From: an uncultured Candidatus Sumerlaeota bacterium
GTDB lineage: Bacteria > CAYMEV01
DNA length: 64,000 nt
NCBI GenBank assembly: GCA_964389675.1
Contig: CAYMEV010000012.1
Span: 39,329-103,328, forward strand
Reading direction: 5' to 3'
Of the stretch, positions 21,584-26,707 are shown piece by piece (position 1 is the stretch's first letter; every line of letters begins with the position of its first letter). The notes under the pieces were generated by a model. It did no database searches. It saw only the letters and a list, made by a program, of their open reading frames with translations, and was not told the origin of the DNA. A program made the translations under genes and the position numbers.

Positions 21584-22066
21584 TTAAATGCTGATGACGC
21601 CGAAGCGGTGAGAGCGTATTATGAAAATCTTACTGTCTGTGTGGAATTCGACGGTCCTTCCATGGTTTCCCCCTGAATCTTCTGCAATTAAAGGTATCTC
21701 GAGGTTCTTAAGGATGTTTCTTATGGATGCAGTGTTTTTCTCACCGATATTCAGGGATTCCTTCTGTATCCTTTTGAACATGCATGACCCGCCTGCCATT
21801 TTGGCGCGAAGATTCCGGATCCCTATTCCCTCCGACAGGCATGTCCCTATTATATAGTTTACAGCGGTATCTGCAAATTTTCCAGGCGATGGAAGGGATG
21901 GAAACCTCTCGCTTTTTGGCAGCATAATGTGTGCCATGGCGGAATAACTGCTGTTAATATCAAATATTGCAAGGGCAACACAGCTTCCAAGCCCTACTAT
22001 CTTCAGGATATCTCCGCTATTTCCGAATGCAATGCAGGACATCCCGACATTGATGATATTATTCAT
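21584..22066 (-). CDS. cheD: Chemoreceptor glutamine deamidase CheD
   Basis: 160 aa; CheD signature (LGSCVALAIFD ... GGSCMF ... IGEKN ... DSGGNHGR). Confidence 0.85.
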   Translation of the reverse strand: MNNIINVGMSCIAFGNSGDILKIVGLGSCVALAIFDINSSYSAMAHIMLPKSERFPSLPSPGKFADTAVNYIIGTCLSEGIGIRNLRAKMAGGSCMFKRIQKESLNIGEKNTASIRNILKNLEIPLIAEDSGGNHGRTVEFHTDSKIFIIRSHRFGVISI

Positions 22067-22689
22067 TTGCTGTTCAGTGAAATATCGTATTTTTTATATA
22101 TTATCTTGTTCAGCAGTATCCCGGGAAAGAAAAGGGCCCTTATGTTCAGGAATCCATCCGGATCATTGAACTGCGTATCTATTACCAGTGACCTTGTAAA
22201 GCTCAGGCTCTGCCTTACAATGGCGAAGTCAATAAGAGCCTGTATATGGTCATATGCAAATGAGGGTATTGAGGGCATCAGTTTTATATTAAGCATAGAA
22301 GCCAGCCCCTTTATATAGGAGCATATTATAATGTTTGCAATTTCCTCAAGGCATGAGATATCCTCAGGAGAGAGGCTGTCGAAGTCCCTTTTCTTATTTC
22401 CCCTTATATAATTCAGTATGCCATCAATGGACCTGTCGTCAAAGATCAAAAGGAAACAACCGTCAGCATCTCCCAGTACTTCAAAGTATAGAGCTCCTTT
22501 AAGCTGATTTTCAGGAAAGAGTGTATCTTTGATCTCTGATATGGGGAAGATTGAAACATTCGGGATATTGATATAGATCTTTCTGTCCAGGATATGAGAG
22601 AGGGAATATGCTGCTGATCCTGTTCCTATATTGCCGAATTCCTTTAAAATGTCCTTCAGTATGAATTTGAATTTATGCTCTTCTTTCAT
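22063..22689 (-). CDS. cheC: CheC-family CheY-P phosphatase
   Basis: 208 aa; CheC/CheX/FliY-type motif (EFGNIGTGSAAYSLS); 4-nt overlap with cheD. Confidence 0.7.
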   Translation of the reverse strand: MKEEHKFKFILKDILKEFGNIGTGSAAYSLSHILDRKIYINIPNVSIFPISEIKDTLFPENQLKGALYFEVLGDADGCFLLIFDDRSIDGILNYIRGNKKRDFDSLSPEDISCLEEIANIIICSYIKGLASMLNIKLMPSIPSFAYDHIQALIDFAIVRQSLSFTRSLVIDTQFNDPDGFLNIRALFFPGILLNKIIYKKYDISLNSK

Positions 22690-22701
22690 TGGAGGTCTCC
22701 T

Positions 22702-24649: not shown

Positions 24650-25015
24650 TCAGTCCTCTAAGACCCGGTTGACCACCTCTTTTATATCTTCCGGGGTAAA
24701 TGGCTTGACAATGAAATCCTTTGCTCCTGCTTCTATTGATTCCATTACAAAGGCCTCCTGTCCCAGTGCGCTGCACATTATGATGCGGGCCTGGGAATCT
24801 TCTTTCAGTATCTCTTTTACAGCAGTAATTCCGTCCATATCGGGCATTACTATGTCCATTGTCACTAACTGGGGCCTGTGCTTTTTAAACAGCTCAATAG
24901 CCTCCATGCCGTTCTCTGCTTCAGCAGCTATGACAATACCCATGCCTTTGAATATTTCTTTAAGCATTGTTCTCATAAACATGGCATCATCCACAATCAG
25001 GACATTCCTTTCCAT
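24650..25015 (-). CDS. cheY: Chemotaxis response regulator CheY
   Basis: 121 aa single REC domain (VLIVDDAMFMR ... TMDIVMPDMDG ... KPF). Confidence 0.9.
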   Translation of the reverse strand: MERNVLIVDDAMFMRTMLKEIFKGMGIVIAAEAENGMEAIELFKKHRPQLVTMDIVMPDMDGITAVKEILKEDSQARIIMCSALGQEAFVMESIEAGAKDFIVKPFTPEDIKEVVNRVLED

Positions 25016-25470
25016 TAAAAACCCTCCTTGTAGTGTAGGTAATAGACTGAGTCCAGGCTTTTATTCAAAAATAAAACATACTTTTCAATGTCAATTATAT
25101 TGACACATCCTTCTCTGTATTGAAAGCATTCATGTATATAGTCTGCCTTCCTTTTGTTTATCCTTGATATCATTTCATGCTCCACAATTAGAATATCTGC
25201 AATATCCGCACAGAAGAAAGAAAACTTGTGAGTTCCTGAAATTATAACAAGGAGGAGGTCTTCAGCAGAAAGGCCCCCTGCGCCATATGGATTCAGGACA
25301 GGGACAATGTCCCCCTTAATATTGGCAATCCCGCTTATGCACGGGTGAAGATAGTCGATATGCAGACACTGGGACTGTATAACAGCTTCTCTTATAAGCC
25401 TGAATTCAACAGCGTAGAAACTGCCGCCTGCAGTGAAAATAATATATTTACCGGCATTTTCACTCATCAA
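25015..25470 (-). CDS. cheW: Chemotaxis coupling protein CheW
   Basis: 151 aa CheW-like domain; overlaps cheY and the MCP gene at start/stop. Confidence 0.8.
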
Positions 25471-26707
25471 ATGTAAACCTGCGCAGTGTACCGCTAAGCT
25501 GTTCTGTCAGCCTGTAAAGGTCTTGTATTGATTCTACCATTTCCTGCATTGATGCTGTCTGTTCCTGGGTAGATGCAGTTGCCTCCTGTGTGCTTGCTGC
25601 ATTGTCTTCGGCTATTTTTGATATCTGTGTTACAGCCTCTGCTACCTCTTTGAATTCATTAAGCTGTTTGTTTGACAGGGAAGAGATCTCCTTGATGCTC
25701 AGGGCATTACCCATAACATTCCGGAATATTTCGCTTAGTTTGGTATTGATGTCATTGAGCCCGGTTTTTCCCTTATTAATCTGCTCTGCAGCGTTTTCCA
25801 TAGTCTGTATTACCTTTGAAGAATTCTGGTTGATCTCGGATGAGATGGAAGCAATCTTCTTTGCGGAGCTTTTTGATTCATCTGCAAGCTTTCTTATCTC
25901 ATCGGCCACAACCGCAAAGCCTTCGCCGTACTCACCTGCCCTTGCAGCTTCAATTGTAGCATTTATTGATAGTATATGGGTCTGAAGTGCTATATTTGTA
26001 ATTATCTGCACTATATTCTCGATCTCCTGGGTTTGCTTCTCAAAACCCCTGATTGAATCAACTGATGATTCAAAGTATGTAAAGATAGATTCCATGCCTG
26101 AAATAGCACTGGTAATATTATCGATCCCGGTCTTTGCACTGTCAAGGCTGTCCTGTATCATATTATAGATTTCATGGGATTTAGAGGACATCTGTTCCAT
26201 GAAAAGCGTATTCTTTTTTGTAATGTCCACAACCTTTTCCGATGCTCTTGCCTGATTTTCAGCACCTGATGCGATAGCCTGGACCGTGGAGCTTATTTCC
26301 TGGGTTGAAGCATTCATCTCCTCTGAAAAGGCGGATAATGACTGTGAAGCATTATTGATGGTTTTTGAGATAGTGCCTATCTCCCTTATCAGCATGGAGA
26401 TAAAGTCTATCATTTTTTTAATGGATTCACTGAGCTTCTGGACCTCGTCGCTCCCTTTCACATTAAGCTTTACCGTGAGGTCGCCTTTTGAAATATTATC
26501 TGCAAAAACAACAAGCTTTTTTATCTCCTTGGTATAGATCCATGACAGGTAAAATGAGATTATAAATGCGCTTATAATTGATATGATGACCACTATCAAT
26601 GCATTTCTGAAATTCCCGCCGTAAAAGAAAAAACCATTTATGGCAGTTGTTATGACAAGTATTACCAAAAATCCCAATAATATTTTTCGTCTCATGATTA
26701 AATACAC
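25460..26707 (-). CDS. Methyl-accepting chemotaxis protein (two TM helices, minimal periplasmic loop, HAMP)
   Basis: 415 aa; N-terminal TM pair, HAMP, conserved signalling hairpin ([37 protein letters not shown]). Confidence 0.85.

Follow-up and report, generated by a model that had tools for sequence, protein, structure and literature searches.

Six minus-strand open reading frames (ORFs) at 21584-26707 of a 64,000-nucleotide stretch of DNA from an uncultured Candidatus Sumerlaeota bacterium (GenBank assembly GCA_964389675.1, contig CAYMEV010000012.1; the whole stretch is called the window below) form a chemosensory cluster of a receptor (methyl-accepting chemotaxis protein, MCP), CheW, CheY, CheA, CheC and CheD, as seen from the ORF list and Pfam. 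We read this locus as a Dif-like chemosensory cassette, as described for Myxococcus, Geobacter and many uncultured bacteria, and put the probability of this reading at about 60%. The gene content, the sequence motifs, a receptor of class 44H (44 heptads) with a transmembrane (TM) hairpin, the conservation of the unit in five lineages and the existence of related clusters all point in this direction. Coordinates are positions in the window, and domains were called with Pfam on the ORF translations. The cassette comprises:

25460-26707, minus strand: MCP (receptor) as called in the ORF list, 415 amino acids (aa), GTG start; Pfam HAMP and MCPsignal
25460..26695, minus strand: probable true extent of the MCP, 411 aa, ATG start, from the Shine-Dalgarno sequence and the starts of the orthologues
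25015-25470, minus strand: CheW coupling protein, 151 aa; Pfam CheW, 35.6 bits
24650-25015, minus strand: single-domain CheY, 121 aa; Pfam Response_reg, NCBIfam CheY_Halo 124 bits
22702-24642, minus strand: CheA kinase, 646 aa; Pfam Hpt, HATPase_c and CheW
22063-22689, minus strand: predicted CheC-type phosphatase of phosphorylated CheY (CheY-P), 208 aa; Pfam CheC, NCBIfam CheC_Thtogales
21584-22066, minus strand: predicted CheD receptor glutamine deamidase, 160 aa; Pfam CheD, NCBIfam CheD_Thtga 130 bits
26727..26755, minus strand: promoter-like site TTGATA-17-TGnTAAAAT, a consensus match only, from a consensus scan of the 135-bp gap between the upstream GGDEF gene and the MCP gene

From MCP through CheW, CheY, CheA and CheC to CheD, the junctions measure -11, -1, +7, +12 and -4 bp. 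A preliminary description of this DNA had reported a cluster of six overlapping or abutting genes at 21584-26707, which is thereby confirmed both in its packing and in its content, each ORF carrying the expected Pfam domains. With their catalytic motifs intact, all six proteins look functional. The receptor gene probably starts at the ATG at 26695, because AGGAG is found 11 nt before it and the orthologues begin there; the alternative GTG start at 26707 overlaps the AGGAG. The cassette may be transcribed separately from the promoter-like site at 26727..26755, and no sigma-54 promoter was found ahead of the che operon.

The receptor (residue numbers follow the 415-aa ORF, ending at residue 415) shows two hydrophobic segments in its hydropathy profile, ~9-27 and 36-54, with a loop of ~6 residues (YGGNFRN) between them, in agreement with the minimal periplasmic domain that the preliminary description had ascribed to this single MCP. 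The TM hairpin is directly followed by the HAMP domain (~58-105, Pfam), and there is no C-terminal tail. Within the signalling domain the hairpin tip lies at E259 and each arm has ~154 residues, equal to 22 heptads. Residues 219-408 aligned without gaps to residues 116-305 of TM1143 from T. maritima (2ch7, 44H), and a 14-residue gap was required in the alignment with E. coli Tsr (36H). The heptad class, whose determination had been proposed earlier, is by this gapless alignment to TM1143 44H. Three sites match the strict methylation consensus [ASTG][ASTG]xx[EQ][EQ]xx[ASTG][ASTG]; the QE sites of the window receptor are residues 374, 381 and 388. Swaps between Gln and Glu are the sole changes at these pairs among the orthologues, in otherwise invariant surroundings, which as a sequence pattern is the signature of real deamidation and methylation sites. 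These positions are Glu-Glu throughout in the two CheR-bearing outgroups checked (L015 and L016) and mixed Gln-Glu and Glu-Glu in the clade of the window.

Among the other cassette members, CheW evolves fastest (31-52% identity among the five lineages in an orthologue alignment) and CheY is the most conserved (82-93%). The phospho-acceptor pocket of CheY is complete (D9/D10, D54, S82 and K104), and the protein aligns to T. maritima CheY with 58% identity and no gaps. CheC retains both D/S-x3-E-x2-N active sites, which are also conserved in a gapless alignment of its residues 11-159 with T. maritima CheC (1xkr), and CheD, which aligns to T. maritima CheD (2f9z_C), retains the cysteine of GLGSC and the histidine of AHIMLP. 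CheA carries the phospho-His H47 in P1, a single Hpt and no fused receiver, and its ATP-binding N, G1, F and G2 boxes are intact in sequence. Pfam detected neither P2 nor the dimerisation domain (P3), and the linker in the P2 region gave no match by sequence profile. Nevertheless, residues 264-632 are collinear with P3-P5 of T. maritima CheA, and an AlphaFold (AF2) model of residues ~147-221 was confident (pLDDT ~90), with the T. maritima P2 domain 1u0s_A as the best fold match in the PDB (probability 1.0, TM-score 0.62, root-mean-square deviation 2.9 Å). A CheA lacking P2 and P3 was therefore rejected; as read from alignment and model, the protein is a five-domain kinase with P1, a divergent P2-like docking domain and P3-P4-P5. 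That Pfam missed P2 fits the poor conservation published for this domain (PMC10782961). Scored against NCBIfam, CheA reached 334 bits with the haloarchaeal CheA model and 243 with the E. coli model, and the best matches overall were haloarchaeal for CheA and CheY and from Thermotogales for CheC and CheD.

In Myxococcus xanthus, the corresponding genes have the order difA-B-C-D-E-G, MXAN_6696 to 6691 (PMC3945109, PMC12802240), with DifA as MCP, DifC as CheW, DifD as CheY, DifE as CheA and DifG as CheC. DifA has 413 aa, two TM segments and class 44H, whereas the kinase DifE contains P2 and lacks a receiver (PMC3945109). DifE phosphorylates EpsW, the activator of the glycosyl transferase EpsZ, with DifD and DifG acting as a phosphate sink (PMC12802240), and the pathway controls exopolysaccharide downstream of type IV pili, not flagella (PMC2577667, PMC3945109, PMC12802240). 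The window shares with it a receptor of class 44H and ~413 aa, in which two TM segments with a minimal periplasmic loop are followed by HAMP, the order MCP-CheW-CheY-CheA-CheC, a CheA with P2 and without receiver, and a cluster free of CheR and CheB. Differences lie in difB, which is found between MCP and CheW in M. xanthus and is missing in the window, in CheD, which is present in the window and not described for Dif, and in the kinase, as DifE is longer (857 aa versus 646 aa). A counterpart of the Dif output from EpsW to EpsZ was not identified in the window cassette.

The 'Dif-like' clusters of Geobacter (Tran et al. 2008) have CheR in place of difB of M. xanthus, where dif is described as CheR-independent, and neither they nor the non-flagellar dif lie near flagellar genes (PMC2577667). 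As a proxy for these systems we used metagenomic clusters: the nearest metagenomic CheAs and MCPs sit in clusters which fit the published description of Geobacter, and L015, L016, L017, L045 and L098 were grouped with this layout. Like them, the window has a 44H receptor with two TM segments, a loop in the range of ~3-10 residues and a HAMP domain thereafter, and the operon order MCP-CheW-CheY-CheA-CheC(-CheD). L098 has the same six-gene layout as the window and no CheR or CheB nearby. In the Geobacter clusters and in L015-L017, CheR is located directly upstream of the MCP, whereas a GAF-GGDEF cyclase takes this position in the window.

For the class assignment, the features of F1, Tfp and ACF in the Wuichet and Zhulin scheme were taken from papers citing it (PMC10746217, PMC6943060, PMC10782961). 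CheC and CheD with 44H receptors are given there as the hallmark of F1, a class with no fixed gene order (PMC10746217, PMC6943060). Tfp CheAs are described as having several Hpt domains and mostly a receiver at the C-terminus, and a receiver-fused CheA as typical of ACF/Wsp (PMC10782961). The window has both CheC and CheD and a 44H receptor, as in F1; CheR and CheB, which also belong to F1, are missing from the window, ~6 kb of flank and the sibling loci. Its CheA with a single Hpt and no receiver departs from Tfp, and from ACF/Wsp it departs by the same receiver-free CheA and by a neighbouring cyclase whose receiver-like domain has lost DD, Asp and Lys. Taken together, the cassette is by its sequence features F1-type in composition and Dif-like in layout. 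With the F1 systems of B. subtilis and T. maritima it has in common a two-site CheC, a Cys/His CheD and, for T. maritima, the similar CheY, the length class of TM1143 and the collinear P3-P5 of CheA. In contrast, CheR, CheB (CheV), many ligand-binding receptors and a flagellar-switch output belong to those systems, and none of these was found at the locus in the window.

How isolated the cassette is was judged from CheA. A search of 5.8 billion proteins returned four close relatives with 69, 61, 56 and 44% identity, the rest having ~36% or less and mostly 25-34%, and exhaustive HMMER analysis of 1.84 billion representatives gave two 50%-identity clusters above 1000 bits, the next scoring 397 bits. 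In all five known lineages, with CheA identities of 44-100%, the order of the six genes is identical. A housekeeping protein from the window, a fusion of cytidylate kinase and ribosomal protein S1 (Cmk-S1, 914 aa, 45974-48718, minus strand), showed the same drop when compared with the 5.8 billion proteins: two relatives at 77 and 69% identity were followed by others at ~30-40% (e.g. Brachyspira with the same fusion, 30-31%). The isolation of CheA is therefore, as far as these searches indicate, a property of a deep and barely sampled lineage and not of the chemosensory system. In one sibling locus, L008, the Cmk-S1 gene directly adjoins the che cassette. The nearest outgroup CheAs, at 28-29% identity, are encoded in two clusters:

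L015: CheR-MCP(419 aa)-CheW-CheY-CheA-CheC-CheD
L016: CheR-MCP-CheW-CheY-CheA

Receptors of both clusters have the same TM hairpin and length class as the MCP of the window, and between outgroup and window the MCPs are 36% identical in a nearly gapless alignment, the CheYs 58% and the CheDs 40%. Searching with the MCP led from the members of the clade to a very large family of receptors with 410-426 aa, whose alignments cover 96-99% of the length with 34-41% identity and whose sources include Acidobacteriota, NC10 and Binatia. In a metagenome-assembled genome of Polarisedimenticolia (Acidobacteriota), one such receptor heads the cluster MCP-CheW-CheY-CheA-(220 aa)-CheD, and neither CheR nor CheB lies within 10 kb of it. 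Another, in a genome of 5.6 Mb, belongs to CheR-MCP-CheW-CheY-CheB-CheA-CheC with a PilZ gene one gene later.

The preliminary description had also reported a window without CheR, CheB and flagellar genes, and this was borne out. Pfam scans of the non-nested window ORFs of at least 100 aa gave no member of these families. Hidden Markov models (HMMs) of CheR and CheB were built from comparison loci and run on six-frame ORFs of at least 40 aa. The CheR HMM, which detected CheR in 48 of 96 comparison loci, had no match at E<=10 in the window, in the sibling loci L001, L004, L007 and L008 or in the flank contigs L013 and L014, and the CheB HMM matched receiver domains only in the same set. Such genes immediately outside the window had been named as evidence that would speak for flagellar chemotaxis; Logan contigs of the same organism, which extend the window by ~5 kb to the right and ~1 kb to the left, contain no che or fla genes in these ~6 kb, and none of the cheR, cheB or flagellar genes was seen within 10 kb of the cassette in the four sibling lineages. 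The local absence of cheR and cheB is not diagnostic of a non-flagellar system, because gene order is not conserved among F1 systems (PMC10746217) and canonical methylation and deamidation sites are retained in the receptor.

These results bear directly on the most serious alternative, an ordinary F1 core of flagellar chemotaxis, for which other parts of the genome would carry the flagellar genes, cheR, cheB and more receptors, CheY-P would bind the flagellar switch and the c-di-GMP genes described below would be mere neighbours. CheC and CheD together with a 44H receptor are hallmarks of F1, a class without conserved gene order (PMC10746217, PMC6943060); the gapless 58% identity of CheY to the T. 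maritima protein, the haloarchaeal or Thermotogales models as best matches of CheA, CheC and CheD, the three canonical methylation sites of the receptor and the presence of CheR, sometimes with CheB, in related cassettes (L015, L016, L017, L018, L097) speak in the same sense. Against it stand the 64 kb plus ~6 kb of flanks and the four sibling surroundings in which no flagellar, CheR or CheB gene was found, the only in-operon receptor, which has no ligand-binding domain and resembles DifA in this, and the location of the best-matching described clusters, Dif and Geobacter Dif-like, away from flagellar genes (PMC2577667). We regard a flagellar F1 core as possible and somewhat unlikely.

Upstream of the cassette, the following genes were considered in connection with its output:

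26843-28270, minus strand: diguanylate cyclase, pseudo-receiver-GAF-GGDEF, 475 aa; Pfam GAF and GGDEF; 135 bp upstream of the MCP gene
28282-29730, minus strand: membrane-anchored FecR-domain protein with Ig-like/Y_Y_Y regions; Pfam FecR, N-terminal hydrophobic anchor
34674-38217, minus strand: two PilT-like ATPase genes (PilT/T2SSE-family); Pfam

The adjacent GGDEF cyclase was correctly noted in the preliminary description. Its GGDEF active site and RxxD I-site are intact as sequence motifs. In a receiver alignment, the N-terminal receiver-like domain has no acidic DD pair, conserved Asp or Lys, and as judged from this it is a pseudo-receiver without the usual phosphotransfer target. Each of the five lineages has a GGDEF gene upstream of the cassette. 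In four of them it is the direct neighbour of the MCP gene, and in L007 the two are separated by a radical SAM gene; in L008, the most distant lineage, in which the remaining synteny is lost, only a C-terminal fragment of the cyclase (RYGGDEF) is on the contig. The FecR-domain gene precedes the cyclase gene in four lineages; it overlaps the gene of the transketolase C-terminal half by 16 bp and lies 11 bp from the GGDEF gene. Its product has a weak match to LipL45 of Leptospira and would be a candidate partner of the receptor, which has no ectodomain.

A cyclase so regularly linked to a chemosensory array recalls the Wsp system of P. aeruginosa, in which a Che-type array is likewise genetically linked to a diguanylate cyclase, and CheA might in the same way directly phosphorylate the adjacent enzyme and raise the synthesis of cyclic di-GMP (c-di-GMP). 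The upstream cyclase gene in 5/5 lineages with intact GGDEF and I-site would suit this idea. Wsp differs, however, by a receiver-fused CheA, by CheR and CheB and by a phosphorylatable REC-GGDEF output, whereas the window has a CheA without receiver, a cyclase with a pseudo-receiver, and CheC and CheD in place of CheR and CheB. As the receiver-like domain of the cyclase lacks DD, phospho-Asp and Lys, phosphorylation of the Wsp kind is largely refuted by the receiver alignment, and CheA is not the receiver-fused hybrid given as typical of ACF/Wsp in the class descriptions (PMC10782961); we consider this alternative hardly credible.

Downstream of cheD, two genes follow within 10-14 bp in the sibling lineages L004/L005 and L007, both encoding REC-HD-GYP proteins which are bona fide by their DD, D, T, K, HD and HHExxDGxGYP motifs:

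L004, 10513-12992: tandem paralogous REC-HD-GYP genes directly after cheD
L007, 13077-15550: tandem paralogous REC-HD-GYP genes directly after cheD

Both proteins have an additional conserved C-terminal segment of ~80 aa (IHIP..L..GM....L.SG..L.PK.T), which resembles a domain that HD-GYP proteins usually carry at their N-terminus. Genes of c-di-GMP metabolism or binding also occur at unrelated CheC/CheD-type clusters among the metagenomic loci:

L018: M-W-Y-CheB-A-C-D, then GAF-GGDEF at 5585-7108
L059: C-D-Y-A, then HD-GYP at 11946-13067, with no CheR or CheB in the full flanks
L095: PocR-HD-GYP at 7878-9494
L016: likewise PocR-HD-GYP
L097: PilZ protein at 16484-16834

As a comparison set we used 82 CheA loci, consisting of L015, L016 and 80 loci picked near-randomly among the matches listed, which served as background and positive controls; a GGDEF gene was located within 10 kb in only six of the 82. 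The recurrence of c-di-GMP genes beside CheC/CheD-type clusters could reflect a general coupling. For the cassette itself, the link to c-di-GMP or surface behaviour is one of gene association only. Since all five lineages have the cyclase gene beside the cassette and two REC-HD-GYP genes are part of the operon in two sibling lineages, an output to surface, matrix or c-di-GMP-related behaviour appears more likely than a flagellar one.

A more specific proposal combines the cassette, the cyclase and the REC-HD-GYP pair of the siblings into one circuit, a methylation-independent array which would set the cellular c-di-GMP level. From the gene neighbourhood only, CheA would phosphorylate the HD-GYP enzymes, CheY and CheC would be the phosphate sink, and the ectodomain-less receptor might be gated by the co-conserved FecR-domain protein. 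Wsp acts on a REC-GGDEF protein, and such a circuit, if real, would be of another design; we think it unlikely.

The remaining alternative is a Tfp-type pathway which steers twitching through the PilT-like ATPases encoded upstream. In detail, a 355-aa PilT-like ATPase is preceded at 34674-38217 by an 827-aa fusion of HEAT repeats with a T2SSE/PilT ATPase. Two ATPase genes of the PilT/T2SSE family on the same strand as the cassette, and a published role of pili upstream of Dif in M. xanthus (PMC12802240, PMC5544727), are what can be said for it. The ATPase genes, called adjacent in the preliminary description, are in fact separated from it by ~8 kb that include six unrelated genes (GGDEF, FecR-domain, two transketolase halves, UvrD and TauE), and only one close relative (L001) has them near the cassette. 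No other pilus genes (pilM-Q, a pilin or a PilG/PilH-type set) were seen in the Pfam scans of the window, and CheA with one Hpt and no receiver is unlike the Tfp CheAs presented as typical in the class descriptions (PMC10782961). Twitching control of this type is thus very unlikely. The earlier interpretation of a pilus- or c-di-GMP-directed rather than flagellar pathway consequently holds in part: a complete cassette free of CheR and CheB, a receptor without ectodomain and recurrent c-di-GMP genes are in its favour, and the F1 type of the parts (nominally flagellar), which is not the Tfp/ACF pattern, and the distance of 8 kb to the pilus ATPases are not.

Several points weigh against the Dif-like reading. 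All parts are of the type used in flagellar chemotaxis of Bacillus, Thermotoga and archaea, including a CheY with 58% identity to a flagellar CheY, and a flagellar output stays compatible with the data at the level of the locus, that is, the 64 kb, the ~6 kb of flanks and the sibling loci. The likeness to Dif is one of architecture, gene order and published descriptions, not of a direct sequence comparison with Dif or Geobacter proteins or of a tree. Similarity of CheA to the 82 comparison loci falls continuously from 309 to 191 bits with only a mild enrichment of CheC/CheD clusters, and the class of CheA would not be fixable by similarity alone. As to the c-di-GMP genes, the cyclase gene is closer to the FecR and transketolase genes (11-bp gap) than to the MCP gene (135-bp gap with the promoter-like site), the lineage of the window has no REC-HD-GYP copy at this locus, and the five lineages are related, so that common neighbours may partly stem from descent.

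In B. subtilis and T. maritima, CheD deamidates the receptors and binds to them, and high CheY-P strengthens the binding of CheC to CheD. Transferred to the Dif-like cassette, the receptor would be switched by an intramembrane signal or a partner protein and not by a periplasmic ligand, as supposed by analogy with Dif, and would control the autophosphorylation of CheA, which would pass the phosphate on to CheY. CheC would remove it again, and CheD would deamidate the Gln sites of the receptor, bind to the receptor and be titrated by CheC as CheY-P rises. This loop of CheC, CheD and CheY-P would provide a feedback which needs neither CheR nor CheB. By analogy with Dif, CheA could also pass phosphate to another regulator, as DifE does to EpsW, with CheY and CheC serving as a phosphate sink.

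As a single locus with a known kind of cassette, the finding overturns nothing. It would extend the Dif-like family to a very deep and almost unsampled bacterial lineage and suggests that the six-gene form without CheR and CheB is a recurring, self-contained module, also present in Acidobacteriota. GGDEF, HD-GYP and PilZ genes beside several such cassettes hint at arrays feeding second-messenger or surface-behaviour decisions, and c-di-GMP neighbours could help to discover what Dif-type pathways sense and what else they control. Distinctive and mildly interesting here are the missing CheR, the presence of CheD, the cyclase in the position of CheR and the rare host lineage.

A two-component module begins 96 bp after cheD, with a target gene further downstream:

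19742-21487, minus strand: soluble HisKA kinase; Pfam, NCBIfam
18412-19752, minus strand: NtrC-type sigma-54 activator; Pfam, NCBIfam
18254..18239, minus strand: perfect sigma-54 promoter TGGCACACATTTTGCA, zero-mismatch match
17861-18254, minus strand: promoter and Cys-rich gene region, corresponding to L001 16393-16783 and L004 18978-19365

The module follows the cassette in the window, L001 and L004 and not in L007 and L008. It is probably separate from the che cassette, because a perfect sigma-54 promoter of its own and a small gene lie beside the activator and are conserved in L001 and L004. The promoter TGGCACACATTTTGCA is found ~43 nt upstream of this gene (ATG at 18196), just downstream of the activator gene, and the gene encodes a 111-aa Cys-rich protein with two repeats of GLCATCxN..TC..HCE(E/D)(F/Y) and no Pfam match. 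It is likely a target of the module, and the Cys repeat motif is likely metal-binding. A shared TGGGTAAAA element is present upstream of the Cys-rich gene, conserved in sibling lineages together with promoter and gene. A second, near-consensus sigma-54-like site TGGCACACATTATGCT at 21921-21936 (minus strand), inside cheD, has 14 of 16 bases, spacer included, in common with the site at 18239-18254. It precedes the histidine kinase gene by ~430 nt and may either serve as an internal promoter or have arisen by chance.

Further away in the window, a 1004-aa protein is encoded at 14814-17828 (plus strand), with a PPDK_N domain (phosphoenolpyruvate-utilising, ATP-grasp) and a weak receiver-like match; on the opposite strand, its gene is overlapped by a 231-aa ORF that has no Pfam match. 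A Bac_transf phosphoglycosyl transferase gene at 41445-42701 (plus strand) lies ~15 kb from the cassette, and no link between the two was seen; it encodes the type of enzyme activated in M. xanthus by the Dif output regulator EpsW. Between the PilT-like genes and this gene, at 38525-39700 (plus strand), a bacterial protein of the TMEM43 family is encoded, with a strong Pfam hit.

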